From: Candidatus Binatia bacterium
Lineage (GTDB): Bacteria; Desulfobacterota; Binatia; UBA9968
Length of the DNA stretch: 59,070 bases
Reading direction: 5' to 3'
Assembly: GCA_036407055.1 (NCBI GenBank)
Contig: DASWZY010000128.1
Location: forward strand, 1-59,070
Shown: in pieces, positions 6,791 through 51,402 of the stretch
Numbering within the stretch: the first letter of the stretch is position 1
Layout of the letters: each line of letters opens with the position of its first letter
Translations under genes and position numbers: made by a program
The notes under the pieces: model-generated
The model's input: only the letters and a program-made list of their open reading frames with translations
What the model was told of the DNA's origin: nothing
Databases searched by the model: none

Positions 6791-6806
6791 TCCGATGGGA
6801 GTCACC

Positions 6807-9466: not shown

Positions 9467-9761
9467 CGGTGAAGCGAACGCGTCCATTGCCCTTGCTGCG
9501 CCGCTGTGCGACCGAATCGCCGTCTTGTTTTCCGACAAGCTCCATATCGAAGTGCCTTCGCTGGAGACGGACCTGATGGAAAGCGGCATACTCGACTCTC
9601 TCACGCTCGTCGAGCTGCTGTTTCACATCGAGCAGGAGCTGGGGTTTAAGATTTCGCTGGAAGTGGTCGATCTCGATCACTTTCGCTCGATCGCACGCAT
9701 CGCCGATTTTCTCATGTCTCGTAACGGCTCCCATCGGAACGGCGGCGACAAGACAATCTGA
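9447..9761 (+). CDS. Acyl/peptidyl carrier protein
   Basis: 104 aa. Phosphopantetheine-attachment motif GILDSLTLVELL. Overlaps the adenylation gene by 20 nt. Confidence 0.8.
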   Translation: MKPLPRDGEANASIALAAPLCDRIAVLFSDKLHIEVPSLETDLMESGILDSLTLVELLFHIEQELGFKISLEVVDLDHFRSIARIADFLMSRNGSHRNGGDKTI

Positions 9762-9765
9762 AGAA

Positions 9766-19346: not shown

Positions 19347-20761
19347 TCAGCCGCGTTCACCGGCGGTGGCTGCTGATACTTGTCGCCGCATTATCCCTGC
19401 CGGTTCTCGGCCGTGCAGATTCTTTTCCCGGCGGCTTTATCGAAAAGGCGGACACCAAAGTCGTCCGCCCGCGCTTGACGGCATCGCAGATAGCGTCCTT
19501 TGTCCCCTCCAATCGCGGCAAATTTCGCTTTCCCCCGCCGTATAACACGGAGGCGATCCGCATCACGACGGCGGCCGACTGCGGCGGCAAAGATTGCGTC
19601 GCGCACGTCGGCTATTCGTACTGGATGAACATCAACAATCACGTCGGCAGCGATACGATGCTGATTTTTCTTGGCCTGGACCGCCGTTACGGCGGCACCG
19701 GGCCGACTCTTTTCAGCTACAACAAACTTACCGACGAAGTAAAGAATCTCGGCCCGCTCTTCGACGGCGGGAGCCGTCTCAGCTGGCGCGGCGGGCTTGA
19801 CTGGTATTTCAGCGCGCGCCAGCCGACCAAGCTATACGTGAACGACGAAGACGCGCGCCTGTACCGCTACGATGTCCGAACCAAGTCACTCGAGACCGTC
19901 TTCGACGCAGCTCCGCGATTTGGAAGGGACAAAGATATAACGCAACCGCACTCCAGCAACGACGACCGGGTTCACTCCGCGACGCTCCGCTGTAAAAGAT
20001 CCGGCTGCACCGACGGAACGCATACGGCTGTCGGCGATGAGGACATGCTCGGTTGTCTTGTGTACAACGAAGGCAAGCACGAATTTTCCAATTATCCACG
20101 GAAACAAAAGTTCGACGAATGCCAGATCGACGCCAGCGGCCGCTGGCTAATCATTCTGGAAAAAGTTCAGGCGGCGGAGCCCGACAGCATCGATAACGTG
20201 ATCATCGATCTCGAGACGGGAAAGCAGCGGACGATTTTATCCAACCAGAACAAAGTCTCCGGCGCCGCTCACGGAGCCATAAGCCATCTCGATCTCGGTT
20301 ACGGTTACATGATCGGAGCCGACAACAGTTACCGCCTGGGTAACGCGAAAGTTCTTTATAAATTCGCTGAGGATCCGCTGCAGGGAAAGCTGGTTTACTA
20401 CAATGGCGATTGGAACGCGCCCGCACCGAACCATATCAGCAACCGCAACAGCGGGTCTGACGTCCCACCGGAGCAGCAATACGCGTGCGGGAGCGGCGCA
20501 AGCAAGAACAACGGCCCGCGGGCGAACGAGATCGTTTGTTTCACTCTGAACGGTTCGTTGGATGTGCTCGTTGTCGCGCCGGTGATGACCGATTTGAACG
20601 TTTCGTCGCGATGCGACGACTACTGCTTGCAGCCAAAAGGGAATCTGGACGTGACCGGCCGTTACTTCATTTGGACGACCAATACGGGCGGCCAAAGACT
20701 CGATGCGTTCATGGTGAAAGTTCCCGGACAGCTTCTCTCTTCTCACAGAGCGTCCCGCTGA
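19343..20761 (+). CDS. Secreted protein of unknown function; paralogue of the N-terminal ~440 aa of the 36392-38944 protein
   Basis: Signal peptide MISRVHRRWLLILVAALSLPVLGRA. Shares long strings with the 850-aa protein: FPGGFIEK, VGYSYW, NNHVGSDTM, NLGPLFDG, QPTKLYVN, DECQID.SGRWL, LDVLVVAPVMTD, PKGNLD.TG.YFIWT. ATGA overlap with the upstream gene. Confidence 0.7.
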   Translation: MISRVHRRWLLILVAALSLPVLGRADSFPGGFIEKADTKVVRPRLTASQIASFVPSNRGKFRFPPPYNTEAIRITTAADCGGKDCVAHVGYSYWMNINNHVGSDTMLIFLGLDRRYGGTGPTLFSYNKLTDEVKNLGPLFDGGSRLSWRGGLDWYFSARQPTKLYVNDEDARLYRYDVRTKSLETVFDAAPRFGRDKDITQPHSSNDDRVHSATLRCKRSGCTDGTHTAVGDEDMLGCLVYNEGKHEFSNYPRKQKFDECQIDASGRWLIILEKVQAAEPDSIDNVIIDLETGKQRTILSNQNKVSGAAHGAISHLDLGYGYMIGADNSYRLGNAKVLYKFAEDPLQGKLVYYNGDWNAPAPNHISNRNSGSDVPPEQQYACGSGASKNNGPRANEIVCFTLNGSLDVLVVAPVMTDLNVSSRCDDYCLQPKGNLDVTGRYFIWTTNTGGQRLDAFMVKVPGQLLSSHRASR

Positions 20762-20788: not shown

Positions 20789-21901
20789 ATGAATTCACCG
20801 GCCTTGGCTCTTAAAAGCGGCCTCGCTGTGAGGCCGCACGCGCGCGTCAAAGTCGCGCTTGTCGCCGGCAGTCTCGATATCGTCGGCGGCCAGGAGGTGC
20901 AGGCGAGCGTACTACGCGAGCGCTTCCGGCAGCAAGGACACGGAGTCGATTTTGTTCCCATCAACCCGCGTTTTCCGCGCGCCGCCGGATGGCTCCGGCG
21001 CGTGCCGTATCTGAGAACGGTCTTGAACGAGGCGCTTTATATCCCCACGCTCGCCCGGCTCCGGCGAGCGGACGTCGTGCACGTCTTCTCCGCTTCGTAC
21101 TGGTCTTTTCTTCTCGCCCCTGCACCGGCGCTACTCACCGCGAAGGTCTTCGGCAAGCGTGTGGTCTTGAACTATCACAGCGGCGAGGCGGCCGATCATC
21201 TTAGCCGCTGGGGCATCCTCGTCCATCCGTTTCTGAAGCTCGCCGATGAGATCGTCGTGCCATCGGAATACTTGAAGGAAATCTTTGCCCGCCATGGCTA
21301 TCGCGTGCGCGTCATACGAAACGTCGTCGACACTTCGAACTTTCGCTTTCGCGAGCGCAGGCCCCTGCGGCCGCGGCTGCTGTCGACGCGCAATCTCGAG
21401 CCGATTTACCGCGTCGACAACACTCTGCGCGCCTTTGCGCTTTTACGCTCGCGCAATCCCGAAGCCACTTTGACCATCGCCGGCAGCGGCAGCGAAGAGC
21501 AGCGGCTCCGCCGACAAGCGGCGCCGTTCGCCGGCTCCGTCCGATTCGCCGGACGCGTCGAGCCGGCTTCGATGCCGCGCATTTACGACGAAGCCGATAT
21601 TTTCGTGAATTCATCGGTAGTGGACAACCAGCCGCTGTCGGTCCTGGAGGCATTTGCGGCCGGCCTCCCCGTCGTATCCACGCCAACGGGCGAGCTCGCC
21701 ACAATGGTGCGCGAGGGTGACACGGGTTCGATCGTCCCGGCGAAAAATCCAGAAGCAATGGCCGCAGCCATAGCGCGCCTGCTTGCCGAAGCCGACGGCA
21801 CGCTCGCAATGGCGCGCCGCGCGCGCGCCGAAGTCGAGAAATACACGTGGCCGGCTGTTCACCGGAAATGGCTCGCCGCGTATTCGGGTGTCGCAGCATG
21901 A
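20789..21901 (+). CDS. GT4 (GT-B) glycosyltransferase
   Basis: GGQEVQASVL N-terminal region and EAFAAGLPVVSTPTGELATMVREGDTGSIV (E-x7-E). Confidence 0.85.
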   Translation: MNSPALALKSGLAVRPHARVKVALVAGSLDIVGGQEVQASVLRERFRQQGHGVDFVPINPRFPRAAGWLRRVPYLRTVLNEALYIPTLARLRRADVVHVFSASYWSFLLAPAPALLTAKVFGKRVVLNYHSGEAADHLSRWGILVHPFLKLADEIVVPSEYLKEIFARHGYRVRVIRNVVDTSNFRFRERRPLRPRLLSTRNLEPIYRVDNTLRAFALLRSRNPEATLTIAGSGSEEQRLRRQAAPFAGSVRFAGRVEPASMPRIYDEADIFVNSSVVDNQPLSVLEAFAAGLPVVSTPTGELATMVREGDTGSIVPAKNPEAMAAAIARLLAEADGTLAMARRARAEVEKYTWPAVHRKWLAAYSGVAA

Positions 21902-24093
21902 AATTGCATCGGCTGAAGAGCATGGGGCTCGGGGAAATCGCCTACCGCAGTCGACAAGAAGCGAACAAGATATTCGAGCGCGTCGGCGGTATTGGCAACG
22001 GCCGCGCCGCCGGACATCTCTTGAAGAAATCCCTCGCCCAAGACACGCTGCGAGAATTGCGCGGCGGTTCAAACGGCGACTTCCACGCGCTCGCGCGCGC
22101 TCTCCGCGAGCGTTTTCAGACTTCCGGCGCGAAGCGGTTTTTCGCCGGAGCCACCGATTCGCGATCGGTGCCATTGCTGCGGCAACACGCGCCGGAGGCG
22201 TGCGCTACGATCATTGCGGCGGCTGACAACGTGCTGGCAGGCCGTTTCAGGCTCCTGGGATACGACGATCTTTATTTCGGCGATCCCGTCCACTGGCGGC
22301 TCGACCCGATCTCCGGCCGCAGAAGCCCGCTTACGCATTGGAGCCGCATCGACCACCTCGATTTCGCCGCAGTCGGTGACCACAAGGTCGTGTGGGAATT
22401 GAACCGCCAACAATGGATGATCGTTCTCGGCCAGGCTTGCCGGCTTACGGGCGACGAAAAGTATGCGCGCGGTTTCGCCGGCTATCTGGGTCAGTGGCTG
22501 AGGGCGAACCCCGCGGGTTTCGGCATCAATTGGGCGAGCAGCCTCGAAGCGGCGCTGCGTATAATTTCCTGGACATGGGCGCTCTACTTATTGCGCGACT
22601 CCGCGACGCTCTCCCCCGAGCTCTACGTCCGCTTGCTGGAATGCATCTCACTGCACGCAACGCACGTGGAAAAATATTTGTCGTACTACTTCGCTCCGAA
22701 TACGCATCTTACCGGCGAGGCGCTCGGCTTGTTCTACGCCGGCGTTGTATTTCCCGAGCTTCAATCGGCGCGCCGCTGGCGCGATCTCGGCGCACGCATC
22801 TTGATTGATCAAAGCGAGCGGCAGATCCTGGCCGATGGCGTCTACTTCGAGCAGTCCACTTGCTATCAACGCTATACCGCGGAGATCTATCTTCATTTTC
22901 TTCTTCTTGCGCGCCGCAGCGGAATTTGCGTGCCTGCGGTCGTCGAAGAACGCCTCCGGCGCCTTCTCGACGTCCTCCTCGTATTCCAGCGGCCGGACGG
23001 CTGTCTGCCCGACATCGGCGACGCGGACGGCGGCTGGCTACTGCCTTTCACGTCGCGGGCTCCCAGCGATTGCCGCGGCGTCCTCGCCGTCGCAGCGCGG
23101 CTCTTCGACTGCGCCGATTACGCCTGGGCCGCGAGCGATCCGGTCCCTGAAAGCATCTGGCTTCTCGGCGCGGTACGGCACCGCTCCGCGATAACGCCTG
23201 CTTCACCTCCGATCACCCGCGAGACAATGGCTTATGCGTGCGGCGGCTATGTCGTGATGCGCAGCGACTGGGCCCGCACTGCGCACCAGATGATCTTCGA
23301 CGTCGGCCCGCTGAGCTCGCCCAAGAGCGGCCACGGGCACGCCGATCTCCTGAGTGTGCAGTGCTCGGCTTTCGGCGAGCCCTTCCTCCTCGACGCGGGG
23401 ACCTACTGCTATACATCCGAGCCCGAATGGCGGGATTTCTTTCGCGGCACGGCGGCGCATAATACGGCGACGGTCGACGGTGAAAACCAAGCCCGCACTG
23501 CGGGGCCGTTTGGCTGGGATCATCATCCGCGCGCCCGCCTGCGCCGCTGCGTCTCGACCGCGGAGTACGTATTGGCCGACGCGGACCATGACGCCTACGC
23601 ATGGCTCGCCGATCCGGTGATCCACCGTCGCCGCGTCGTGTTCGTGAAAGACCGCTACTGGTTCGTCGTCGACGACTTCCTGGGCACCGCGAAACACCGG
23701 ATCGACGTGCGGTTTCAATTCGCGCCAATGAGTGTGACCATGGAAGCCGAGAACTGGATACGCGCACGGGGCAAGTCCAGCCACGGCCTGCTCCTTCGAA
23801 CCTTCGCTAGCAGCCCGATCGAGGTCGCCGTTGCCGAAGGAAGCACGGCGCCGATTCAGGGCTGGATCTCCCCCGATTATGGCCGGCGCACCCCAGCGCC
23901 GGTCGTAAGTTGCTCCGCAGAAACGTCTCTGCCGCTAAGAATCATGACCATCCTTCTGCCATGCGAGGACGCCGCGGCGCCGCTTCCGTCGGTGACTCCC
24001 ATTCACGAGAAGCCGGCAGGCATCATGGGTGCGCGATTTGCCGATGAAGACAGCACGGTGATTATCGACGACGACGCGGTCCGCCTGAAATAA
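21898..24093 (+). CDS. Heparinase II/III-like (alginate-lyase superfamily) protein; no signal peptide visible
   Basis: DHKVVWELNRQQWMIVLGQACRLTGDEKYA, INWASSLEAALRIISW, GVYFEQSTCYQRY, HGHADLLS...GTYCY...HNT. ATG 21898 forms an ATGA overlap with the GT4 stop. Confidence 0.75.
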   Translation: MKLHRLKSMGLGEIAYRSRQEANKIFERVGGIGNGRAAGHLLKKSLAQDTLRELRGGSNGDFHALARALRERFQTSGAKRFFAGATDSRSVPLLRQHAPEACATIIAAADNVLAGRFRLLGYDDLYFGDPVHWRLDPISGRRSPLTHWSRIDHLDFAAVGDHKVVWELNRQQWMIVLGQACRLTGDEKYARGFAGYLGQWLRANPAGFGINWASSLEAALRIISWTWALYLLRDSATLSPELYVRLLECISLHATHVEKYLSYYFAPNTHLTGEALGLFYAGVVFPELQSARRWRDLGARILIDQSERQILADGVYFEQSTCYQRYTAEIYLHFLLLARRSGICVPAVVEERLRRLLDVLLVFQRPDGCLPDIGDADGGWLLPFTSRAPSDCRGVLAVAARLFDCADYAWAASDPVPESIWLLGAVRHRSAITPASPPITRETMAYACGGYVVMRSDWARTAHQMIFDVGPLSSPKSGHGHADLLSVQCSAFGEPFLLDAGTYCYTSEPEWRDFFRGTAAHNTATVDGENQARTAGPFGWDHHPRARLRRCVSTAEYVLADADHDAYAWLADPVIHRRRVVFVKDRYWFVVDDFLGTAKHRIDVRFQFAPMSVTMEAENWIRARGKSSHGLLLRTFASSPIEVAVAEGSTAPIQGWISPDYGRRTPAPVVSCSAETSLPLRIMTILLPCEDAAAPLPSVTPIHEKPAGIMGARFADEDSTVIIDDDAVRLK

Positions 24094-24134: not shown

Positions 24135-25175
24135 ATGTCCAGAGGTAAAGCGATGCAAGTTGAAAAACTCCGTCAAGAACCGCCGCGCGGAACAGCGAAG
24201 CCGCCGCTTCAAGGAGCTTCCCGAAACGCGTCATCGACGCCGCATGAAGCATCTGTCACGGTACTGATTCCTTGCTACAACGAAGATTTGACGATCGGAA
24301 AAGTCGTGCGGGACTTTCAGGCCGAGCTGCCCAACGCGACCATTTGTGTCTTCGATAACAATTCTACCGATCGGACCATCGAAGAGGCCGCTCAGGCGGG
24401 CGCAAGCGTCGTGCGTGAAAAACGCCAGGGCAAGGGATATGTGGTCCAGGCGATGTTCCATCGGCTGGACTCGGACGTTTATCTGATGGTCGACGGCGAC
24501 GGCACTTATCCCGCCTCTGCCGTTCATGCATTAATGCGCCCGATTCTCAATGACGAGGCCGACATGGTCGTGGGATCCAGACTCCACAGTGAATCCGAAA
24601 GCCGCTTTCGGCTGGCAAATAAATTCGGCAACGGATTGTTTCTATGGATCTTAAACCGGCTGTTCCACGTTCGCTTGACCGATATTCTTTCCGGCTACCG
24701 CGCCTTCAACCGTCGCTTTGTCAAAGATATCCCGGTATTTTCCCGCGGTTTTGAGATCGAAACGGAGCTTACCATTAAAGCCCTGCAACGCGGGTACCGC
24801 GTTGTCGAAGTGCCTGTCGACCTCCGCGCGCGACCCGACGGAAGTTTTTCGAAGATACGCATTCTGCACGACGGCTTTCTGATTCTCAATACGATTCTGG
24901 CACTGTTCCGCGACTATAAGCCGCTTACGTTCTTCGGCTTTACAGGAATCGCCTTCGTTATCGCGGGATTGATCCCCGGCGCCATCGTTGTTTCGGAGTA
25001 TTTGAGAACGGGACTGGTTTTGCGAATGCCGTCCGCGTTGCTCGCCGTTGGACTCGTCATCACCGGCGTGCTGCTGCTGGTCGTCGGGTTGACGATTCAT
25101 ACGATTGTGCGGCGCTTTCAGGAACTGGATTACAAACTGCAATCGGTCGCGAACGAGCTCAGAGCCCGCCGCTAG
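24135..25175 (+). CDS. Membrane-anchored GT2 glycosyltransferase with the architecture of polyprenyl-phosphate sugar synthases (GtrB/DPM1-like)
   Basis: VTVLIPCYNED, VFDNNSTDRT, MVDGDGTYP, plus two C-terminal TM helices (LTFFGFTGIAFVIAGLIPGAIVV; LLAVGLVITGVLLLVVGL). Alternative start at ATG 24153. Confidence 0.75.
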   Translation: MSRGKAMQVEKLRQEPPRGTAKPPLQGASRNASSTPHEASVTVLIPCYNEDLTIGKVVRDFQAELPNATICVFDNNSTDRTIEEAAQAGASVVREKRQGKGYVVQAMFHRLDSDVYLMVDGDGTYPASAVHALMRPILNDEADMVVGSRLHSESESRFRLANKFGNGLFLWILNRLFHVRLTDILSGYRAFNRRFVKDIPVFSRGFEIETELTIKALQRGYRVVEVPVDLRARPDGSFSKIRILHDGFLILNTILALFRDYKPLTFFGFTGIAFVIAGLIPGAIVVSEYLRTGLVLRMPSALLAVGLVITGVLLLVVGLTIHTIVRRFQELDYKLQSVANELRARR

Positions 25176-25202: not shown

Positions 25203-25919
25203 ATGAACGAAGAAAACATAACGGTGTCGGATCTCGAAATCATGGCGCAAGCGCACAACTACCGCAGTTGGATGTTTCGGCAGATAGCTCCCTTCATCGG
25301 CCGGCGGATTTTAGAAATCGGCGCGGGCATCGGCAATTTTACGAACCTCATGCTCGACCGCGATCTGGTGGTCGCCGCCGACGTCTACCCGCCGTGTGTG
25401 GAATATCTGGAAAAACGTTTTGCCGACAAACCCCACGTGCTGCCGAGGCGGTTGGATGTCGCCGATCCGGCGACGACCGCTTTGGGAAAGTACGATTTAG
25501 ACACGGTCGTTTGTCTGAACGTGCTGGAGCACGTCGAAGACGACATCGGCGCGCTTTCGCATATGTTCGCCGTGCTGCGCAGCGGCGGCAGTCTCGTATT
25601 GCTCGTGCCGGCTTTTGAATTTTTATTCGGGACAGTCGACTCGTCGTTGGGTCACCACCGGCGCTACACCAAACCGCCGCTGGTGCAAAAAATGCGACAG
25701 AGCGGCTTTGCCATCGAGAAGGTCTTCTATATGAACCTCATCGGCATAGCCGGCTGGTTCCTCAACAATCGCGTGTTCAAGAGAACGGAAGAGTCTCCGA
25801 AACAGATCGCGCTCTTCGACCGACTGATCGCTCCTGTAGCGGAACGTGCCGAAAAGTTATTCCAGCCGCCGATCGGCCTTTCCTTGATAGCCGTCGGCCG
25901 CAAAACTACTGTTTCATAA
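25203..25919 (+). CDS. Class I SAM-dependent methyltransferase
   Basis: RILEIGAGIGNFT (motif I), VVCLNVLEHVEDD, LRSGGSLVLLVP. Confidence 0.85.
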   Translation: MNEENITVSDLEIMAQAHNYRSWMFRQIAPFIGRRILEIGAGIGNFTNLMLDRDLVVAADVYPPCVEYLEKRFADKPHVLPRRLDVADPATTALGKYDLDTVVCLNVLEHVEDDIGALSHMFAVLRSGGSLVLLVPAFEFLFGTVDSSLGHHRRYTKPPLVQKMRQSGFAIEKVFYMNLIGIAGWFLNNRVFKRTEESPKQIALFDRLIAPVAERAEKLFQPPIGLSLIAVGRKTTVS

Positions 25920-25933
25920 AACGGAAGCTCAGC

Positions 25934-27643
25934 ATGGAGCATCAAAATGCCGATCGCCTGGCGGCGCCCGTCGGGCGAGATATCTCCGTAGACGAGCCCG
26001 GCGTGAGAGGACGCACGGCGTGGCTGCGCAGCTACGGTTTGTTGATCGCTTTATACGCCGTGATAACCGCGGCGACCGGTGCGGCTTTCATGGGCGATAC
26101 CATCGGCTATGCCGACAGCATCCTGGAATCGAAATTCTTCGAGTTCGGGCATCTGCTCTGGTTCTTTATTGGCTGGCTCGCTTCTATGGCTCTCGCGCCC
26201 TTTACCGGCCTCGAGCCGCGCCTGAACATCATTTTCGCGCTCGTCGCGGTTAATTGGGCGGCCGGATTGCTGAGCGTGGTTCTCTTATACAGCCTAGCCC
26301 GGAACATTGCGGAACGGGAATGGCCGGCGATTTGCGCTACGATCGGGTTCATTTTCTCCCAAGCGTTTCTTGACCTCGCGCACAGTGGATGCGCGTATAT
26401 CCCCGGCCTGTCGCTTCTCCTGCTCGGTCTTTGGCTGCTGTTTCGCGCCGAAGAGCAGCCCCGGCACGCTACGCGATACGCGATTCTGACCGGCGCGGCT
26501 TTTGCGACCACCGTCGCCTTATGGTTCCCTTACGTAACGGCCGTTCCCGGCGCTCTTCTGGCGACGCTCCTGTTGTTCGGATTTAACCGCCCAAGGCTTT
26601 CTTTCATCATTCGGACCGCAGTCGCATGCGGCTGCATCGCCCTGATTATCTACGGAACAGCTGCGCTGCTTCAGGGCATCTACACGCTGGGCGGCTTCAT
26701 GGACTGGGTCCATTCGTCATCCCACGGCATTACCGACAAGGGCAACTTGCCGCGATTGCTTTTCGGTATTCCGCGCTCGTTTACGTTCACGGGCCGCGAC
26801 GGCTCGATGTTCAAACGATTCTTGTATCACGATCCTTACAATCCGGTTTCCCTTTTCGACTTGTTCCAGGGAACGCTGGCGAAACTGCTTCTCTTCTACT
26901 TCCTAGCAGTCGCCACCGCCGTCGTCCTGGTACGATCCGATCGAGGACGTCGCCTGCTCGCTTTCCTTGTGCTCAGCACAGCCCCCCTGCTCGCACTGGC
27001 TCTGCTGTGGGAGGCAGGAGCGATCGAAAGATACTTGCCTCTCTACCCCGCGCTGTTCATTTCGTTGTCGTATGCTTTGAGTCGACGCACGAGATTTTTT
27101 CTCTACGAGATATTGGTCGGAGTCTGGATCGCCATGAACATCATAGTGAACACCAGCGCGCTGGCCAACTCGACGCTGGCAGCGCGCCAGCAGCGAGTGG
27201 CTGGTCGGGTGGAGCCATTGCAGCCGCTATTGAAGCCGCACAGCGTAATCGCGACTTTGAGTCAGCTCGACGAGCTGTGGGCGTTTCCCTGGGACTTTCC
27301 GTTTCATCCCATCAATCAAAAACAATCGCTACCAACGTATCATGTTCAGGAGCCCGGCACGACACAGATTCCCGTGTGGAGGCAGAACTTCGCCGCTAAG
27401 GCACGAGCCGTGTGGAGCGCCGGCGGCGACGTCTGGGTATCGAAGAGGCTGCTTGCCCCAAAACCGAAAGCCGAGTGGAACTGGGTCGAAGGAGACGACA
27501 GCCGAATTACCTGGCGCGATATCTACGATTACTTTTCAGAGTTCGAGTACGGTCAAGCTCTAGGCGGCGAAGACGGTTTCGTACTTCTCCGACAGTCGGC
27601 GAACAATGAGACATTACTCGCCCGATCTGACTCGGGCGCATGA
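25934..27643 (+). CDS. Polytopic membrane protein of unassigned family (GT-C-like topology), tandem copy A
   Basis: About 12 hydrophobic helices followed by a soluble tail of about 170 aa. Acidic MGDT..YAD just after TM1. Clear paralogue of 27731-29461. Confidence 0.6.
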   Translation: MEHQNADRLAAPVGRDISVDEPGVRGRTAWLRSYGLLIALYAVITAATGAAFMGDTIGYADSILESKFFEFGHLLWFFIGWLASMALAPFTGLEPRLNIIFALVAVNWAAGLLSVVLLYSLARNIAEREWPAICATIGFIFSQAFLDLAHSGCAYIPGLSLLLLGLWLLFRAEEQPRHATRYAILTGAAFATTVALWFPYVTAVPGALLATLLLFGFNRPRLSFIIRTAVACGCIALIIYGTAALLQGIYTLGGFMDWVHSSSHGITDKGNLPRLLFGIPRSFTFTGRDGSMFKRFLYHDPYNPVSLFDLFQGTLAKLLLFYFLAVATAVVLVRSDRGRRLLAFLVLSTAPLLALALLWEAGAIERYLPLYPALFISLSYALSRRTRFFLYEILVGVWIAMNIIVNTSALANSTLAARQQRVAGRVEPLQPLLKPHSVIATLSQLDELWAFPWDFPFHPINQKQSLPTYHVQEPGTTQIPVWRQNFAAKARAVWSAGGDVWVSKRLLAPKPKAEWNWVEGDDSRITWRDIYDYFSEFEYGQALGGEDGFVLLRQSANNETLLARSDSGA

Positions 27644-27730
27644 CGGCTCCCCAAGCGCTCCGAACGAGAAGGACGTCCGATTCGCGACATTCGCGTCCGT
27701 CGCTCGCTAGCTGAGCAGAAAGTTACGACG

Positions 27731-29461
27731 ATGACTAACCCGATGAGAGACTCCACGCAAGTCATTGCTGCCGCACGCCGTCGCCCTTTTAAAATCGCGG
27801 CCGTCGGCCCTATCGTCGCCTGGCTCCGCAGCTACGGAAGAATTGCTGCGCTCTATATTGCCGCGACATTCTTCACCGGCGCCATCTCCATGGGCGATAC
27901 CGACCATTACGCCGAATTCATCAGGACTTCCCAGGTGTGGGATTTCGGCCACCTGTTGTGGATTGTGCTCGCGTGGAGCGTATCGAGAACGCTGCAGCCG
28001 TTCACCAGTTTTACGCCGCTCAACAATGCGATTTTCACGATGATGACACTTAGCTGGCTGGCGGGACTGCTGAGCGTGCTTTTGCTCTACGACAGCACGC
28101 GCCGAATCGCCAAACAGAGCTGGGTGCCTGAATTCGTGGCCATCGGTTTGATCTTCAGCCACGCTTTTCTCAATTACGCGCAAACCGGGTGTTCGTATGT
28201 CCCAGGCCTGTCGATGGCGCTGCTGGGTCTTTGGCTTCTTATTCGAGAAGAGGACATAGCCGAGCACTCGAGAGCGAGCGGCATCGGCGCAGGCTTTGCG
28301 TTCGCCGCGGCAGTAGGCTTTTGGGTGCCTTACATCTTCGCCATGCCGGGTCTAACGGTCTCTACGATGATTCTCTTCGGCGTAAGCCGCTGGCGGTTGT
28401 TCCAGTTCGCCCGCGTAGTGTTGTCTTTCGGGATATTTTGCTTAACCCTGTACGGCGGCGCCTGCATGCTTCATGGAATCTACGATCTTGAAGGATTCAG
28501 ACAATGGGCGATCGCCCCCGGAATGATGACCCAGATCAGCGGCTTTAATCGGATGGTTTTTGGCTTCGCGAGGTCCTTCTTCAACATGGCAACGGATGGC
28601 GTGCTTTATAAACGGTATCTGCTTCACGACCCCTACAATCCGGTTTCTTTTCTCGAATTGCTCCGCCTCAGCCTGGGGAAGCTTCTTTTCTTCTACGCGG
28701 CGTTCGGCGTTTGGATTTTCGCGCTATTCACCTCTCGCGCCGGCAGGCGATTCACGGAGCTTTTCATCGCTTGCGCCGTTCCCGTCATGCTCTTCGCGTA
28801 CAGCTGGCAGGGGGGCGATACGGAACGGTACTTTCCGCTGTATCCAGCGATCTTCTTAATGCTGACCTATGCTGTGTCGGAAGGACGGCTGATCGTCTGG
28901 AGTCGTGTTCTCGCGGCTATATGGGTGTTCGGCATGATGTATACCAACGGCGCCGCGTTGTCGAATACGAAAATACGCGCCGTCCACGACCGGTCGATCG
29001 CCAGGATCAAAGACCTCCAGCCTTTGTGGAAACCGCACAGTCGAATCGCGACCGTGTTGATCCAAGACGATGTATTCCGTTTTGCATCCGACTATCCATT
29101 CGATCCCTTAAGCACGACGGGCATGTTGGCGTACGACTCCGAGCTCCGACTTCCCGCGGCGATCGACATCATCGATCGAGGCAGCGCCGACACACCGAAA
29201 TGGCGGGAAAAGTTCGCGCAGCTGACGCTCCAGGCCTGGTCTGTCGAAGGCGATCTGTGGGTAAGCAAGCGCGTTTTTAACGACCGTCCGCCGCGTGCCG
29301 AAACGCACTGGGTCGAAGGAGACGATCCACGCGTCACGTGGCGCGACGTCTACGAATACTTTTTGCAATTCGACTACGGCCGAGCCGTAGGCGGAAATGA
29401 CGGCTTCGTTCTTCTCGCCAGGTCTCCGAAAAACAAGCGTTTGCTCGACGGCCTCGACTAA
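27731..29461 (+). CDS. Polytopic membrane protein of unassigned family (GT-C-like topology), tandem copy B
   Basis: Same architecture as copy A. Shared strings: AWLRSYG, FGHLLW, HDPYNPVS, ERY.PLYPA.F, W.SKR, WVEGDD.R.TWRD.Y.YF..F.YG.A.GG.DGFVLL. Confidence 0.6.
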   Translation: MTNPMRDSTQVIAAARRRPFKIAAVGPIVAWLRSYGRIAALYIAATFFTGAISMGDTDHYAEFIRTSQVWDFGHLLWIVLAWSVSRTLQPFTSFTPLNNAIFTMMTLSWLAGLLSVLLLYDSTRRIAKQSWVPEFVAIGLIFSHAFLNYAQTGCSYVPGLSMALLGLWLLIREEDIAEHSRASGIGAGFAFAAAVGFWVPYIFAMPGLTVSTMILFGVSRWRLFQFARVVLSFGIFCLTLYGGACMLHGIYDLEGFRQWAIAPGMMTQISGFNRMVFGFARSFFNMATDGVLYKRYLLHDPYNPVSFLELLRLSLGKLLFFYAAFGVWIFALFTSRAGRRFTELFIACAVPVMLFAYSWQGGDTERYFPLYPAIFLMLTYAVSEGRLIVWSRVLAAIWVFGMMYTNGAALSNTKIRAVHDRSIARIKDLQPLWKPHSRIATVLIQDDVFRFASDYPFDPLSTTGMLAYDSELRLPAAIDIIDRGSADTPKWREKFAQLTLQAWSVEGDLWVSKRVFNDRPPRAETHWVEGDDPRVTWRDVYEYFLQFDYGRAVGGNDGFVLLARSPKNKRLLDGLD

Positions 29462-29523: not shown

Positions 29524-31431
29524 ATGTGCGGCATCGCCGGTAGCCTTAATTTGAATCCGTCTTTGCGCGTCGACGAGGCGCGAATCAAACGCATGCGCGA
29601 CGTTTTGCGCCACCGCGGTCCCGATGGCGCCGGTTTGTGGATCGACGGATCGGTCGGCCTCGGCCATCGCCGGCTCTCGATCGTAGACCTCGCCGGCGGC
29701 CGCCAGCCGATGGCGAACGAGGACGAGTCGGTGTGGATCACCTACAACGGTGAAATTTACAACCACGCTGCGCTGCGCCCGGTTCTCGAAGCGGCCGGAC
29801 ACATCTACCGCACGCGGAGCGATACCGAGACGATTCTCCATCTCTATGAAGAAGAAGGCGAGCGCTGCCTGGAAAAGCTTCAGGGGATGTTCGCTTTCGC
29901 GATCTGGGACAAAAGGCAGAGCCGGCTGCTGCTCGCACGCGACCGGCTCGGCATCAAGCCGCTGTATTACGCGATTACCGATACGGAAATCGTTTTCGCG
30001 TCGGAGATCAAGGCGATCCTCGCCTCGGGCGCGCTTCGCCCGGAATTCAACGAAGCCGTGCTGCCGGAATTTCTGGCGAATCGATTCGTCGCGGGCGACG
30101 AAACTTTCTTCCGCGGCATCCACAAGCTCATGCCCGGGCGGATACTTTCATGGTCAGCGGCGACCGGTGTCCAGCTGCGGCGCTATTGGAAATTGCCGGC
30201 AGCGGACGAGCGGAGCGACATTTCTCTTGAAGAAGCGGCAAACGATGTGCGCGAGCGGCTTTCGGCTGTGGTTCGAAGCCATCTCATGAGCGATGTGCCG
30301 CTGGGGCTTTTTCTTTCCGGCGGGCTCGATTCGAGCGCGATCGCAGCGCTCATGGCGCCGATGGTCCGCGAGCCGATCCGGTCTTTCTCGGTCGGCTTCG
30401 CCGAAGCCGAAGCGAACGAGCTCGGGTACGCGCGTCTGGTCGCGCGCGCCGTCGGCGCCGAACATCGCGAGATCGTGCTCCGTCCGGATGAATTTTTCTC
30501 GGCCCTGCCGAATCTCATCTGGCACGAGGACGAGCCGATCGCGCATCCGTCTAGCGTGCCGCTCCACTTTGTCTCGCGCCTGGCGCGGCAGCATGTGAAA
30601 GTCGTGCTCACAGGCGAAGGCTCCGACGAGCTGTTTCTCGGTTATCCGTGGTACCGCGCCACGGTTTGGAACGAGCGCCTCGGGCGAATGTATTTTCCCT
30701 TCATGCCCGAGAAGCTCCGCTTGCGGGCCAAAGCTATGGCGCGGCGATTGCCGCGGCGTCTCAGGCGGTATACCGAACGGAGCTTTCTCGCCCTCGATCC
30801 CGGCCCGCGCGGCCTTTTCTACGAGAATTTCGCAGTCTTTTCCGACCGCCAGCGCGCCGTCATCCTCGCGGACCGCGAGCTCGCCGGAAGCGATCCTTAC
30901 ATCGAGTGTCTCCGCCGCTACGACGAAGGCGAGGGCGACACGCTGGCGCGCATGAGCGCGGCCGACTTACAGACCTATCTCGTCGAGCTGTTGATGAAAC
31001 AGGATCAGATGAGCATGGCGGCCTCGATCGAGAGCCGCGTGCCGTTCCTCGATCATGCATTGGTCGAGCATGTCGTGCGGCTGCCGAGTCGTTTGAAGGT
31101 GCGCGGCCTGACGACCAAAGCGGTTCTCCGCGAAGCCGTCAAGGATATTGTCCCGAAGGAGATCCTCACGCGCGGCAAGATGGGCTTTCCTGTCCCCATG
31201 GGAAAATGGCTTCGCGGCGCGTTCGCGCCGCTCGTCGACGAGTTCGTCCTGAGCCCGCGCGCGCGCGAGCGCGGGATTTTCAATCGCGCGGCCGTCGAGC
31301 GCCTAGCGGAGGAGCATCGGACCGGCGCACGTCCGCACGGCGACCGGCTGTGGCTATTGATCAATCTCGAAATGTGGCAGCGGATTTTCCTCGACGGCGA
31401 AGACCGCAGCGTCGTTCTTCGCGCGGCATGA
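29524..31431 (+). CDS. Asparagine-synthase-like glutamine amidotransferase (copy 2)
   Basis: MCGIAG start, PP-loop FLSGGLDSSAIAA. Alignable along its full length with copy 1. Confidence 0.9.
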   Translation: MCGIAGSLNLNPSLRVDEARIKRMRDVLRHRGPDGAGLWIDGSVGLGHRRLSIVDLAGGRQPMANEDESVWITYNGEIYNHAALRPVLEAAGHIYRTRSDTETILHLYEEEGERCLEKLQGMFAFAIWDKRQSRLLLARDRLGIKPLYYAITDTEIVFASEIKAILASGALRPEFNEAVLPEFLANRFVAGDETFFRGIHKLMPGRILSWSAATGVQLRRYWKLPAADERSDISLEEAANDVRERLSAVVRSHLMSDVPLGLFLSGGLDSSAIAALMAPMVREPIRSFSVGFAEAEANELGYARLVARAVGAEHREIVLRPDEFFSALPNLIWHEDEPIAHPSSVPLHFVSRLARQHVKVVLTGEGSDELFLGYPWYRATVWNERLGRMYFPFMPEKLRLRAKAMARRLPRRLRRYTERSFLALDPGPRGLFYENFAVFSDRQRAVILADRELAGSDPYIECLRRYDEGEGDTLARMSAADLQTYLVELLMKQDQMSMAASIESRVPFLDHALVEHVVRLPSRLKVRGLTTKAVLREAVKDIVPKEILTRGKMGFPVPMGKWLRGAFAPLVDEFVLSPRARERGIFNRAAVERLAEEHRTGARPHGDRLWLLINLEMWQRIFLDGEDRSVVLRAA

Positions 31432-32636
31432 CCATGCGCGTACTGTGGCTCAATGTCGGCGGTCTGTGGCCGCTCAACACCGGCGGCAGGCAGCGGAGTT
31501 TTCATATCATCTCCGAGCTGTCGCTCCGCCATCGCCTGACGGTCCTCACCACCGAAGGCGCCGGCGACGATCACGCGGCGCTGGCCGCGCAGCTGCCACG
31601 GTGCGACGTAATCTCCGTGCCTTACGCGCTGCCCAAGCGCGGCAGCGCGGCGTTCGGGCTGGCACTGTTGCGCTCATGGGTCTCGGAGCTGCCGGTGACG
31701 CTCTGGAAGTGGCGCATTCCGGCGCTGCAGAGAGAAGCCGGGCGGATGCTAACGCCTGAGCGCATCGACCTTTGCGTCGTCGATTTTCTCTACGCCGCGC
31801 CCAACCTGCCGCGCGACGTCGCGGTTCCGACCGTGTTGTTCGAGCACAACGCCGAATACCTTATCTGGAAACGATTGTACGAAGCCGAGCAGCGCCCCTT
31901 CCGGCGCGCATTGTTGGAGATCGAGTGGAAAAAACTCCGGCGCGCCGAAGCCGCGGCTTGCGCGAAAGCGGCGATGACGCTCGCGGTATCGGAAAACGAC
32001 CGGGCCGCGCTGCTCGAAGCTGCGCCTCGCGCGCGCGTGCGCGCGATTCCGACGGGCGTCGATACCTCATATTTTCACCCGAACGGCACGCGCCACTCCG
32101 CCGCTAAGCTCGTCTTCAGCGGATCGATGGATTGGTATCCGAACGAGGAAGCGATGCTCTATTTCATCGACTCGGTGCTGCCGCTGATCCGCCGTGCGAT
32201 TCCCGAAGCGTCGCTGACGGTGGTCGGGCGCAATCCGAGCGCGCGGCTCCGCGCCGCGGCGAACGGCGCGGTCCACGTAACCGGCACGGTCGAGGACGTG
32301 CGGCCTTACATCGACGAGGCGGCCGTTTACGTCGTGCCGCTCCGCATCGGCGGCGGCACGCGCATCAAGATATTCGAAGCGCTGGCGATGGGAAAAGCTG
32401 TGGTATCGACGCGGATCGGCGCCGAAGGACTGCCGTTGAGCCCGGGCGAGCATTTCGTCGAGGCCGAGGGGCCCGAGGAATTCGCCCGCGCCGTGGTCGA
32501 GCTCATTCGCCGACCGGAGCGGCGCCGTGCCATCGAGCAAGCAGGACGGAAACTGGTCGAAGAGCGCTACTCGTGGAATCGGGCGGCGCGAGAATTTGAA
32601 CTACACTGCGAGGAGGTCATCAACGATGCGGGTTAG
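31428..32636 (+). CDS. GT4 (GT-B) glycosyltransferase, 'stp1'-like
   Basis: MTMRVLWLNVGGLWPLNTGGRQRSFHIISELS N-terminus. FEALAMGKAVVSTRIGAEGL. ATGA overlap with the AsnB-2 stop. The track's 30648 start lies inside AsnB-2. Confidence 0.85.
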   Translation: MTMRVLWLNVGGLWPLNTGGRQRSFHIISELSLRHRLTVLTTEGAGDDHAALAAQLPRCDVISVPYALPKRGSAAFGLALLRSWVSELPVTLWKWRIPALQREAGRMLTPERIDLCVVDFLYAAPNLPRDVAVPTVLFEHNAEYLIWKRLYEAEQRPFRRALLEIEWKKLRRAEAAACAKAAMTLAVSENDRAALLEAAPRARVRAIPTGVDTSYFHPNGTRHSAAKLVFSGSMDWYPNEEAMLYFIDSVLPLIRRAIPEASLTVVGRNPSARLRAAANGAVHVTGTVEDVRPYIDEAAVYVVPLRIGGGTRIKIFEALAMGKAVVSTRIGAEGLPLSPGEHFVEAEGPEEFARAVVELIRRPERRRAIEQAGRKLVEERYSWNRAAREFELHCEEVINDAG

Positions 32637-33939
32637 CGTATTTGGGCTGGGTTATGTGGGATGCGTCACGGCCGCGTGCCTGGCGAAGGCCGGCCACCAG
32701 GTTATCGGCGTCGATATCACTCCGGAAAAAGTCGTGATGCTGAACGACGCGGTGCCGCCGGTCGTGGAGCCGGGCCTCGGAGAGGTCCTGGCGGAAGTCG
32801 TATGGGATAAACGTCTGCGCGCCATTTCCTCCACGGAAAACGCCGTGAAGGAGACCGAGCTCGCGCTCGTCTGCGTCGGAACGCCGAGCCGCTCCAACGG
32901 GCGGCTGGACATCAATGCCGTCGAGCGCGTCGCGCACGAGATCGGCGCGGCGCTCGCTGCGCGCTCCGATCCGTTCACCGTCGTGCTGCGGAGCACCGTG
33001 CTCCCCGGCACGACAGAGCAGACTTTTATTCCCGCGCTGCTGAGCGGCGCCGGACGAGGACTCGATTCCTCGCTGCGCGTTGCCGTGAACCCGGAATTCA
33101 TGCGCGAAGGAAGCGCGCTCAAGGATTTCGCCCATCCGCCGTTCACTCTCGCCGGCACGGGCGACGAGGAGACGGTCGAGCAGCTGCGCGACCTTTATGC
33201 CAGCCTTGAGTCGCCATTTGTTCCGACCACGATCCGAACCGCCGAGATGCTGAAATACGTTTCCAACACGTTTCACGCGCTCAAGATCGCCTTCGCGAAC
33301 GAGATTGGCGACGTCTGCGCCGCCTTCGGCGTCGACCCGCAGGAGCTCATGCGTATTTTTATGATGGATCGCAAGCTCAACATCTCGGAAATGTATCTCC
33401 GTCCGGGCTTTGCCTTCGGCGGCTCCTGCCTGCCGAAAGATTTGCGCGCGCTCATCTACGCGGCGCGGTCGGCGGATGTCGCCGTGCCGCTGCTGTCCTC
33501 GATTCTTCCGTCCAACGACGGCCAGATCCGCGAGCAGGTCGACGCCATCTTGAAAACGCGGAAGCGTAAGGTCGGCATCGTCGGCCTTTCCTTCAAGCCT
33601 GCAACCGACGATCTGCGCGAAAGTCCCATGGTGACTCTGGCGGAGGCGTTGATCGGAAAAGGCTGCGATGTCCGCATCCTCGACCGAAATGTCTCGCTCG
33701 CCCGGTTGATGGGCGCGAACCGGCGCTACATTGAGGAGGAAATACCGCACATCTCCTCGCTCATGTGCGAAAACGTCGAAGACCTGCTGGCGCACGCCGA
33801 GGTCATCGTTATCGGCAACGCCGACGCGGAGGCGGCGGCGACGCTGGATGCCGCGACGCCGGGGCACCTCGTCATCGACCTTACACGCGGCATGGTGCGC
33901 AAGAAGAAGCTCGAGCGGCGATTCGAAACGGCCGCGTAA
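32626..33939 (+). CDS. Nucleotide-sugar 6-dehydrogenase, closest by eye to GDP-mannose 6-dehydrogenase (AlgD-like)
   Basis: MRVSVFGLGYVGCVTAACLAKAGHQVIGVD, VCVGTPS, NPEFMREGSALKDF, RPGFAFGGSCLPKDLRAL, LSFKPATDDLRESP. As I recall it, these align almost residue for residue with P. aeruginosa AlgD. GAGGAGG SD upstream of ATG 32626. Confidence 0.8.
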   Translation: MRVSVFGLGYVGCVTAACLAKAGHQVIGVDITPEKVVMLNDAVPPVVEPGLGEVLAEVVWDKRLRAISSTENAVKETELALVCVGTPSRSNGRLDINAVERVAHEIGAALAARSDPFTVVLRSTVLPGTTEQTFIPALLSGAGRGLDSSLRVAVNPEFMREGSALKDFAHPPFTLAGTGDEETVEQLRDLYASLESPFVPTTIRTAEMLKYVSNTFHALKIAFANEIGDVCAAFGVDPQELMRIFMMDRKLNISEMYLRPGFAFGGSCLPKDLRALIYAARSADVAVPLLSSILPSNDGQIREQVDAILKTRKRKVGIVGLSFKPATDDLRESPMVTLAEALIGKGCDVRILDRNVSLARLMGANRRYIEEEIPHISSLMCENVEDLLAHAEVIVIGNADAEAAATLDAATPGHLVIDLTRGMVRKKKLERRFETAA

Positions 33940-35196: not shown

Positions 35197-36411
35197 ATGG
35201 CAATAGACATCGTACAGATTTTTGATTGTTTAACGCTGCTGTCCTTCGGACTGATATTCTACACTTATGCAGGATATCCCGGACTTCTGTGGATGTTGAG
35301 TAAGCTGGCGGGTAAACCCGAGCAGTCTTCGAGCGCACCACCGCAGTGGCCGGCGGTTAGCATCCTCATTTCCGCATACAACGAAGAACGCGCGATCCGC
35401 GCACGCATCGAGAATCTCTTGCAGCTCGACTACCCGAAGGACCGAATCGAGATTCTCGTCGGCTCGGACGGTTGCACCGACCGCACCGCTGCGATCGTTG
35501 CGTCTTATCCCGGCATTCGCCTGCTCGACTTCGCTCAGAGACGCGGCAAGGCCAGCGTCCTCAACGATCTCGTAGCGGCGGCGCGTAACGAGATCGTGGT
35601 TTTGACGGATGCCAACACGTACTTTCGCGCCGACGCGGTGCGGGAACTCGTGCAGGCACTTTGGCGCTATCCTTTCGGATCGGTCGTCGTCGGCCGACTC
35701 GAGCTCAGGTCGTCGGCCGATAAAGGAAACCTCGACGGCGCCTATTGGCGGTATGAGACGTGGATCAAGACGCTCGAGTCGCGGTTCGGCAGCCTGTTGG
35801 GCGCGAACGGCGCCATCTACGCATTCCGCCGCGACCGTTACAGACGCGTTCCGGCAGAGGCGATCGTCGACGATTTCCTCATTCCCATGCTTATGCGGCG
35901 CGATTGCGGCGATCGGACTTTCTTCGTCCCCGCGGCGCGCGCATGGGAGGAGTCGCCCGAGGAGGTCAAGCACGAGTTTCGCCGCCGGGTCAGGATCGGC
36001 GCCGGCGATTTCCAAGCCTTGAAATGGACATGGTCTCTGCTGTTGCCGACGTATGGGATGACCGCGCTGATCTATTTCTCTCACAAGGTGCTGCGCTGGC
36101 TGGGACCGTGGTTCCTGTTGGCGGGATTGATCGGCACGGTAACGCTGCTCGACGAGCCGCTGTTTCAGTTTTTGCTCGTGGGACAGGTTATTTTTTATGC
36201 CCTGGCCGTCGCGGGCACGACTCTCAGGCCTTTGCCGGCCATCGGCGGTTTGGCCGTGGCGGCGCGCTATTTCGTGATCCTTAACGCGGGGCTATTTCTT
36301 GGTCTCGTGCGGCTGAGCCTTGGCGCGGCGCGGCCGACATGGGCGACCGCGCCGCGCAAGACCCTGGACATGGAGGGCCGACGCTTACACGCTAAGGCGT
36401 CCGTGAAATGA
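35197..36411 (+). CDS. Integral-membrane GT2 glycosyltransferase (synthase-like, TM helices at both ends)
   Basis: VSILISAYNEE, LVGSDGCTDRT, VLTDANTYF, FRRRVRIGAG (QxxRW-like position), N-terminal and C-terminal TM helices. Confidence 0.8.
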   Translation: MAIDIVQIFDCLTLLSFGLIFYTYAGYPGLLWMLSKLAGKPEQSSSAPPQWPAVSILISAYNEERAIRARIENLLQLDYPKDRIEILVGSDGCTDRTAAIVASYPGIRLLDFAQRRGKASVLNDLVAAARNEIVVLTDANTYFRADAVRELVQALWRYPFGSVVVGRLELRSSADKGNLDGAYWRYETWIKTLESRFGSLLGANGAIYAFRRDRYRRVPAEAIVDDFLIPMLMRRDCGDRTFFVPAARAWEESPEEVKHEFRRRVRIGAGDFQALKWTWSLLLPTYGMTALIYFSHKVLRWLGPWFLLAGLIGTVTLLDEPLFQFLLVGQVIFYALAVAGTTLRPLPAIGGLAVAARYFVILNAGLFLGLVRLSLGAARPTWATAPRKTLDMEGRRLHAKASVK

Positions 36412-51400: not shown

Positions 51401-51402
51401 AG

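Follow-up and report, generated by a model that had tools for sequence, protein, structure and literature searches.

Periplasmic glycosylation by three-component systems, in which a polyprenyl-phosphate-sugar synthase, a flippase and a membrane glycosyltransferase of the C fold class (GT-C) act after polymerisation, is now established (PMC11127046). The Citrobacter proteins ORF15, ORF14 and ORF12 founded family GT136 in 2024, an example of the fact that new GT-C families are still being founded, and auxiliary enzymes that modify the donor are known in systems of this type (PMC11127046). Here we describe a tandem pair of genes, copy A and copy B, on a contig of 59,070 bp from a metagenome-assembled genome of Candidatus Binatia; this whole stretch is referred to below as the window. 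The pair lies in an exopolysaccharide (EPS) operon, downstream of genes for a family 2 glycosyltransferase (GT2) and a methyltransferase. On grounds that are all computed, namely fold, remote homology, conserved loop residues, charge-based topology and gene neighbourhood, the reading that we favour with moderate confidence is that both proteins are GT-C glycosyltransferases using a polyprenyl-phosphate sugar made by the GT2 to decorate the EPS, or its lipid-linked repeat unit, on the periplasmic side of the membrane.

Like the Gtr and Citrobacter systems, this locus combines a putative polyprenyl-phosphate-sugar synthase gene and a GT-C gene inside a Wzx/Wzy-built polysaccharide locus, and the addition of side chains in the periplasm after polymerisation is proposed for A and B as well. 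It differs from them in the lack of a linked flippase, in the sequence family of the GT-C protein, in the presence of two tandem GT-C genes and in the auxiliary enzyme, which is a methyltransferase in the window and an epimerase in the described case; moreover, the A/B system is known from sequence alone. The type of system, a polyprenyl-phosphate-sugar synthase plus a GT-C enzyme, is a familiar one, and the current view of such systems is left unchanged by it.

Three groups of described enzymes serve for comparison with the proteins themselves. It is typical of PMTs that paralogues work in pairs, as in the Pmt1-Pmt2 heterodimer (PDB 6P25). Bacterial PMT_2/GT39 proteins (PF13231, PF02366) are the one sequence family whose link to the pair has statistical support; from the pair they nevertheless differ, since the A/B family has its own motif set (FGHLLW, KRFLxHDPxNPVS, ERYLPLYP and WVEGDD), a C-terminal domain without a solved counterpart and no MIR domain. 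The mycobacterial arabinosyltransferases EmbC, EmbA, EmbB, AftA and AftB are also GT-C enzymes that take their sugar from a polyprenyl monophosphate, and they include tandem diverged paralogues with distinct acceptor specificities. However, they are much larger, carry carbohydrate-binding modules and use decaprenyl-phosphate-arabinofuranose from another pathway, and no sequence similarity between them and the A/B family was detected. ArnT (GT83; PDB 5EZM/5F15) shares with the pair the GT-C fold, an N-terminus inside, the D-x3-Y-A spacing of loop 1 and a periplasmic C-terminal domain, and within arnBCADTEF its partner arnC encodes a GT2 with C-terminal transmembrane (TM) helices that makes the undecaprenyl-phosphate-sugar donor. 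In contrast, ArnT modifies lipid A whereas A and B sit in an EPS operon, no ArnE/F-type flippase genes accompany the pair, and ArnT has 13 TM helices (PMC5377068) versus about 11 predicted in A and B.

Architecture and remote relatives of the tandem pair

The two genes are separated by 87 nt, and their products share 43% identity over 544 aa (BLASTP, E 2e-142), a similarity far above chance that is spread evenly along the length (identity 0.32-0.49 across regions). An earlier reading made from the DNA letters alone, here called the sequence-only reading, had described them as two open reading frames (ORFs) encoding diverged paralogues, and both were indeed found on the + strand (Table 1). The deposited model of copy A (VGH16_06575, 517 aa) begins at M53 of the MGDT motif and thereby loses the first TM helix. 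Because this helix is conserved among homologues and confidently modelled by AlphaFold2 (predicted local distance difference test, pLDDT, >90), the 569-aa ORF is the better gene model for copy A.

The full AlphaFold2 model of copy A, built from a family alignment of 41 sequences (A1), reached a mean pLDDT of 89.7 and a predicted template modelling score (pTM) of 0.89. When it was compared with the PDB by Foldseek, the top 27 matches were all of GT-C fold (E 9e-7 to 0.12, probability at least 0.98), 24 of them GT-C enzymes and three of them chains of one GT-C-like glycosylphosphatidylinositol (GPI) transamidase subunit, while transporters and other non-GT-C proteins appeared only beyond these, at probabilities of at most 0.2. 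The matches comprise AglB (E 9e-7), the C-mannosyltransferase DPY19, yeast and human STT3, ALG12, ALG9 and PglB, followed by AftB, AftA, Pmt1, Pmt2, Pmt4, ALG6 and ALG3; ArnT was matched with E 1.7e-5 and a TM-score of 0.48 normalised to ArnT. The polytopic membrane domain of copy A therefore resembles solved GT-C enzymes, in agreement with the GT-C blueprint that had been proposed from the sequence alone.

Remote homology was detected at the level of profiles. A reference profile (A3) was composed of 35 PMT_2-type proteins, collected with an acidobacterial query, and E. coli ArnT. Its hhalign comparison with the family profile gave a probability of 93.0% (E 3.4e-7) over 401 columns, with 39-494 of A1 placed on 50-488 of A3, so that the alignment extends about 80 residues into the C-terminal domain. 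Significance was reached only in this profile-versus-profile comparison: against single sequences the family profile gave P 0.35 for E. coli ArnT and P 0.16 for an acidobacterial PMT_2 protein, neither of which is significant. In the alignment, D55-T-x-x-Y59-A60 of copy A is placed on the D-E-x-x-Y that is invariant in the PMT_2 set (D31-E32-T-R-Y35-A36 in E. coli ArnT), and E365-R366-Y367 is matched to G-P-R-Y-Y of PMT_2-type proteins. Opposite the K-Y-P-P-G-W region the family consensus reads W-R-P-L-G-W, its R-P being FF in A and IV in B. Two of the 41 sampled relatives pass Pfam gathering scores on their own, P0103 for PMT_2 (34.2 bits vs 26.1) and P0092 for PMT (25.8 bits vs 22.7). A phmmer search of the PDB with P0103 gave no match, and a phmmer match of the P0092 C-terminal domain to a streptococcal sialoglycan adhesin (E 0.014) was taken as chance because the domain is predicted to be alpha/beta. 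Judged from the profile alignment, the A/B family is a remote relative of the ArnT/PMT group (GT83/GT39, Pfam PMT_2).

In Burkholderia and Salmonella ArnT, the Tyr of RYA and the Lys of YFEKP, both in the first periplasmic loop, have been found to be essential (PMC5377068). The sequence-only reading had remarked that the motifs of the pair are not recognisable from ArnT or PMT, which turned out to be only partly right, because the Asp and the Tyr-Ala are shared at the same spacing whereas the Glu and the Lys are not, and because of the two relatives that match the PMT and PMT_2 models. All six motif islands that it had quoted were located at equivalent positions in the two copies: AWLRSYG (A29/B30), MGDT (A53/B54), FGHLLW (A71/B72), HDPYNPVS (residue 299 in both), ERY[LF]PLYPA[LI]F (residue 365 in both) and the tail pair WVEGDD (A517/B527) and DGFVLL (A547/B557). 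Across the 41 sequences, and in copy A numbering, the invariant columns include D55, Y59, F71, G72, H73, G152, Y155, W197, W258, K294, D300, R366 and Y367, to which W482, P511, W517, W527, G548, F549 and N558 are added in the C-terminal tail; R281, S282, F283, R295 and E365 are conserved in at least 90%. As copy B belongs to this alignment, it carries every invariant column. The invariant D55 lies eight residues past the first TM helix and provides the acidic residue that marks loop 1 of GT-C enzymes.

The membrane topology was deduced from hydropathy, charge bias and homology to the mapped loop of ArnT. The model and the family hydropathy place the helices of copy A at 24-47, at 56-64 and 71-91 within loop 1, and at ten more hydrophobic segments up to residue 410. 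Helix 71-91 is weakly hydrophobic (mean Kyte-Doolittle value 0.91 vs 1.2-1.8 for most others) and contains R/P in the family consensus. With this helix taken as interfacial, the protein has 11 TM helices and its N-terminus inside, which is the best-supported topology. Under this arrangement the cytoplasmic segments are positively charged (net charge +1.6 for the N-terminus, +2.1 for 120-130, +1.4 for 215-221, +2.7 for 333-340 and +0.8 for 383-390), whereas the periplasmic ones are not (-2.9 for loop 1, 0 for loops 150-155 and 196-199, and -1.73, without any K or R, for loop 358-365). A topology of 12 TM helices, in which helix 71-91 is counted, was rejected because it would put all the K/R-rich loops in the periplasm and break the positive-inside rule at every loop; the charge statistics thus favour 11 helices over the approximately 12 of the sequence-only reading. 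It follows from the 11-TM topology that loop 1, loop 247-306, the E-R-Y segment and the C-terminal domain are predicted to be periplasmic, a prediction that agrees with the mapped ArnT loop. The earlier assignment of the acidic loop and the C-terminal domain to the periplasm is in this way backed by positive-inside statistics and by homology to the experimentally mapped loop 1 of ArnT. Loop 247-306, which lies between TM7 and TM8 under this topology, forms three short helices in the model. The soluble tail comprises about 159 aa, somewhat fewer than the 170 or so first estimated, and was modelled alone by AlphaFold2 with a pLDDT of 88.7; acceptor recognition is a natural guess for its role.

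As regards the extent of the family, neither copy matched any model of Pfam-A or NCBIfam at E at most 1, and the family is therefore unassigned, as the sequence-only reading had suggested; non-glycosyltransferase families are among those that gave no match. A word-indexed search retrieved 205 relatives, nearly all of about 570 aa and either unnamed or called 'hypothetical protein', and a profile search of 1.84 billion cluster representatives returned 991 clusters at E at most 1e-3 and 482 at E at most 1e-30, almost all of them full length (clusters counted at 50% identity, ~990, all from uncultured lineages such as Binatia and Acidobacteriota). Every naming source uses 'hypothetical protein', save isolated automatic labels on two members. 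In a scan of GTDB with one genome per species, 25 loci were found, all in metagenome-assembled genomes of Binatia, Pyrinomonadaceae and other Acidobacteriota, Terriglobia and Bryobacterales, together with a few bins labelled Clostridia, Proteobacteria and Planctomycetia. Searches of the literature on GT-C enzymes with exosortase, or with Acidobacteria and exopolysaccharide, found no account of the family. It is new at the sequence level, where it would probably found its own Pfam family, and it is perhaps a candidate for a new GT-C family at the level of CAZy. Its description provides a usable annotation for EPS loci of abundant uncultured soil phyla (Binatia, Acidobacteriota).

Donor linkage and proposed activity

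A further line of evidence is the neighbourhood. The GT2 encoded upstream of the pair finds its best NCBIfam match in AglJ (TIGR04182, E 2.6e-73, 246.9 bits, under the cut-off of 325), and its best matches are all polyprenyl- or dolichyl-phosphate sugar transferases (AglJ, Dol-P-hexose transferase, PpgS and ArnC); its translation shows two hydrophobic helices near the C-terminus. The methyltransferase encoded between this GT2 and copy A shows weak NCBIfam matches that include the oligosaccharide methyltransferase MftM (1.7e-6), and it is a candidate modifier of the donor sugar or of the product. Pfam and NCBIfam thus bear out the description of both genes that had been given from the sequence.

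The linkage between the family and a GT2 of this type recurs in other genomes. Of the GTDB loci, 21 have flanks long enough to be assessed; in 13 of these, as in the window, the family gene has an AglJ/GtrB-like GT2 as its neighbour. In ten of the 21 loci the GT2 has two C-terminal TM helices and lies within 1 kb of the family gene, and in three it is a soluble protein of about 270 aa, two of which were scanned and best match AglJ, ArnC, PgfS and PpgS. Orthologues of the window GT2 itself (>400 bits) adjoin the family gene in nine GTDB loci. In L009, L011, L015 and L020 the GT2 is accompanied by an orthologue of the methyltransferase (~290-311 bits), and in L016 one adjoins the family gene on a contig that ends before any GT2. 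Conserved synteny with a polyprenyl-phosphate GT2, anticipated by the sequence-only reading, is therefore present. Its analogy with a gtrB/gtrC donor-plus-transferase module holds for the GtrB-like GT2 that is linked to the pair, but the flippase component of gtrABC was not found here.

We infer from this arrangement that A and B use a lipid-phosphate-linked sugar donor, supplied by the adjacent AglJ/GtrB-like GT2, at the extracytoplasmic face, and that they decorate the polymer in the periplasm; which sugar is donated, what accepts it, what part the methyltransferase plays and how A and B would divide the work without redundancy all belong to what is inferred. In the proposed mechanism, the GT2 would act at the cytoplasmic face and charge polyprenyl phosphate with a hexose-type sugar taken from a nucleotide sugar, the S-adenosylmethionine (SAM)-dependent methyltransferase may modify the lipid-linked sugar, and some protein would flip it across the membrane. 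Each of the two GT-C proteins would then transfer the sugar at the periplasmic face to the Wzx/Wzy-built, uronic-acid-containing EPS or to its lipid-linked repeat unit. The invariant D55 and Y59 of loop 1 would act as in ArnT and PMT, K294/R295 of loop 247-306, together with R366/Y367, would keep the polyprenyl phosphate in place, and the C-terminal domain would contribute to acceptor recognition. D55, Y59, H73, K294, R295, D300, R366 and Y367 are the residues nominated for mutagenesis.

Several points weigh against this proposal. Support for an enzymatic role of A and B is computational, and all members come from metagenome-assembled genomes. The Foldseek TM-scores are modest (0.4-0.48), though the list is uniform, and sequence searches of the whole PDB with copy A (phmmer) and with the 41-sequence profile (hmmsearch) returned nothing meaningful. 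A, B and 39 of the 41 sampled relatives remain below the Pfam PMT and PMT_2 thresholds. In loop 1, Thr replaces the Glu of the DE motif of ArnT, and the Lys of YFEKP has no conserved counterpart in A or B. The topology rests on hydropathy, charge bias and homology, and the model of the C-terminal domain matched no significant fold in the PDB by Foldseek (best E 0.18), nor any recognisable carbohydrate-binding fold. With respect to the donor, eight of the 21 related loci have no adjacent AglJ-like GT2, and the window encodes a second GT2 (43844-44935) that could be an alternative source. Finally, a crude screen by hydropathy and ORF size for a flippase, GtrA-like or otherwise small with several TM helices, found none in the operon and, in 24 of 27 loci, none close to the family gene. 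The sole window ORF of 80-260 aa with at least three TM helices (52655-53152(-), 165 aa) lies among non-homologous end joining (NHEJ) genes, far from the EPS operon, and the Wzx gene at 14723-16480 is the only one of MOP type in the locus.

Competing explanations

Since the nearest recognisable relatives of the pair are of PMT_2/GT39 type, and A and B are tandem diverged paralogues, they might instead be PMT-like protein O-glycosyltransferases that transfer a polyprenyl-phosphate sugar onto secreted or surface proteins, perhaps as an A-B heterodimer like Pmt1-Pmt2. Possible substrates exist: the cluster is flanked by genes for two secreted proteins (19343-20761 and 36392-38944(-)) that share 52% identity, belong to no known family and have homologues likewise placed in L005, the surrounding genes best match XrtA/PEP-CTERM-associated families, and a PEP-CTERM gene occurs near the family gene in L002. 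However, most related loci carry a single copy, and an obligate heterodimer is therefore not family-wide. In the Acidobacteriota loci it is the genes for a family 4 glycosyltransferase (GT4), the UDP-glucose/GDP-mannose dehydrogenase (UGDH), the AsnB-type amidotransferase and the heparinase-like protein that are kept beside the family gene, and not those for the secreted proteins; in addition, neither MIR nor any other luminal domain of PMT type is present, and the C-terminal domain has no PDB match. We consider protein O-glycosylation unlikely on this balance. Its more specific form, a bacterial Pmt1-Pmt2-like enzyme that would place a methylated hexose onto the secreted proteins of the locus or onto proteins of PEP-CTERM type, with a donor made by the GT2 and the methyltransferase and no dedicated flippase, appears rather less likely still.

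A different donor was also considered. The oligosaccharyltransferases AglB and STT3 stand at the top of the Foldseek list, which includes PglB as well, and the locus makes a lipid-linked repeat unit by means of an initiating phosphotransferase, Wzx and Wzy, all of which would fit an oligosaccharyltransferase- or ligase-like enzyme that takes polyprenyl-diphosphate oligo- or polysaccharide donors and passes the finished EPS unit en bloc to an anchor, either protein or lipid, instead of attaching one side-chain sugar. Against it, a regular-expression search for the oligosaccharyltransferase motif WW[DE][YWFN]G found none in the 41 members (WWD[YWFN]G in 0/41). A second acidic metal-binding motif of DxD/ExD type is likewise absent, as loops 150-155 and 196-199 contain no D or E in any member; the first of these loops we take to be the site corresponding to the second metal-binding acidic motif of PglB. 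Furthermore, the profile homology is to PMT_2/ArnT proteins, which use monophosphate donors, the recurrent neighbour is a GT2 of the polyprenyl-monophosphate-sugar type, and a Wzy_C/O-antigen-ligase-like gene is already available in the locus, so that en bloc transfer is improbable. It is even harder to credit that A and B are not glycosyltransferases at all but GT-C-like proteins that retain the fold without the chemistry and serve as scaffold, transporter or polymerase. No family model matches them, the three GPI-transamidase subunit chains stand at ranks 19, 23 and 24 of the Foldseek list, and the equivalents of the ArnT Glu and Lys are not conserved. On the other side, the Asp and Tyr of loop 1 are invariant across a divergence to about 40% identity, basic residues in the periplasmic loops are conserved, the linkage to a GT2 of the lipid-sugar-synthase type is repeated, and transporter folds match with low probability. 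The transfer of a lipid-phosphate-linked sugar to the polysaccharide or its repeat unit remains the reading that we prefer.

The surrounding locus

The features of the pair and of its neighbourhood are collected in Table 1.

Table 1. Coordinates of the tandem pair, its conserved segments and neighbouring genes in the window
Feature	Position	Strand	Remarks
Copy A	25934..27643	+	569-aa ORF; predicted GT-C-fold membrane glycosyltransferase, 11 TM helices and periplasmic C-terminal domain
Codons 1-52 of copy A	25934-26089	+	Part omitted by the deposited annotation
Copy A MGDTIGYAD, residues 53-61	26090..26116	+	First periplasmic loop; D55 and Y59 invariant (41/41); predicted catalytic/donor-binding motif
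Copy A long periplasmic loop, residues 247-306	26672..26851	+	W258, SSHG, FGxxRSF, K294, R295, H299-D300-P; predicted phosphate/acceptor contacts
Copy A E365-R366-Y367	27026..27034	+	Short periplasmic loop; R366 and Y367 invariant, E365 at least 90%
Copy A C-terminal periplasmic alpha/beta domain (predicted), residues 411-569	27164..27640	+	Contains WVEGDD and DGFVLL
Copy B	27731..29461	+	576-aa paralogue; architecture as copy A; family-invariant residues all kept
Copy B MGDTDHYAE, residues 54-62	27890..27916	+	First periplasmic loop motif; aligned with copy A by BLASTP
GT2 glycosyltransferase	24135..25175	+	346 aa, two C-terminal TM helices; Pfam Glycos_transf_2 (4.2e-18); candidate polyprenyl-phosphate-sugar synthase
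Class I SAM-dependent methyltransferase	25203..25919	+	Pfam Methyltransf_12/23/11/25 (1e-11 to 2e-9); no TM helix or signal peptide
GT4	20789-21901	+	Pfam; upstream part of conserved block
Heparinase II/III-like protein	21847-24093	+	Pfam; upstream part of conserved block
AsnB-type amidotransferase	29524-31431	+	Pfam; downstream part of conserved block
GT4	~31428-32636	+	Pfam; downstream part of conserved block
UGDH	32527-33939	+	Pfam; downstream part of conserved block
Wzy_C/O-antigen-ligase-like gene	4251-5573
Second candidate GT-C	42265-43827	+	520-aa polytopic protein; YYGDD right after the first TM helix
Second GtrB/PgfS/ArnC-like GT2	43844-44935	+	Two C-terminal TM helices; PgfS 307 bits

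The first 36.4 kb of the window (1-36.4 kb) constitute a gene-dense EPS locus of Wzx/Wzy type, encoded on a single strand, in which the gap at 9466-9766 holds an ORF for a carrier protein. It encodes a tyrosine-kinase-like ATPase, the initiating phosphotransferase, Wzy-like and Wzx proteins, several GT4 enzymes and UGDH, together with two AsnB-type amidotransferases, FemAB-like acyltransferases, a deacetylase, a carbamoyltransferase and a DltA-like adenylating enzyme with its carrier protein. Its best NCBIfam matches are to XrtA/PEP-CTERM-associated families, all of them under the cut-offs.

When the ORFs of 27 related loci were searched with the window proteins, a recurrent block emerged in the order GT4, heparinase II/III-like protein, AsnB, (GT4), GT2, (methyltransferase), family gene or genes and UGDH. 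The order GT4, heparinase-like, AsnB, GT2, family gene and UGDH is found in L004, L005, L007, L009, L012, L013, L015, L017 and L020-L022, and in most related loci the gene directly following the family gene is UGDH. In Binatia genomes and Acidobacteriota genomes alike, the family gene is surrounded by the block that runs from GT4, the heparinase-like protein and AsnB to UGDH, and this conserved GT4/heparinase-like/AsnB/UGDH set points to an amidated uronic-acid polymer.

Tandem pairs of family genes occur in the window and in L005, L007, L010 and L016, while most related loci have a single copy. In a neighbour-joining tree, which carries no support values, A and B are placed in different clades, each copy having orthologues of its own, with B grouped with P0018 and L005_9743, and the pair of L007 is also split across distant clades. 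A recent tandem duplication was rejected on account of these separate clades, each with orthologues elsewhere, and pairs of the A/B type are therefore old paralogues; A and B probably differ in acceptor site or linkage.

A number of further observations concern the same locus or its equivalents. The gene at 19343-20761(+) encodes a secreted 472-aa protein without any family match that is 52% identical to the N-terminal half of the 849-aa product of 36392-38944(-), a protein with Big_7 and purple-acid-phosphatase-N domains; homologues of the two flank the equivalent cluster in L005. The gene for the DltA-like amino-acid adenylation enzyme at 7703-9466(+) is followed by a 104-aa ORF (9447-9761(+)) with a carrier-protein-like GILDSL motif, and beside them lie genes for a luciferase-like oxygenase, GNAT/FemAB-like proteins and the carbamoyltransferase; together these genes suggest aminoacyl and carbamoyl decoration of the polymer. 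In L002/L003, a 595-aa protein encoded at 5156-6943, with no Pfam or NCBIfam match and no detectable relation to the family, is flanked on one side by a GT2 (GT2_TM_C)-methyltransferase pair and on the other by the next GT2 and the family gene, in a locus that also has two PMT/PMT_2-type genes and a PEP-CTERM protein gene.

Outside the EPS locus, the polytopic protein of 42265-43827 and the GT2 of 43844-44935 form a second candidate GT-C/donor-synthase pair, directly downstream of histidine-kinase and response-regulator genes (39018-42261). The polytopic protein has no Pfam or NCBIfam match, and its hhalign comparison with the family profile (E 0.018) is not significant. Further downstream, Ku (50522-51406(-)) and a multidomain LigD with ligase and primase-polymerase domains (53573-55558(-)) constitute a bacterial NHEJ pair that is unrelated to the tandem genes.

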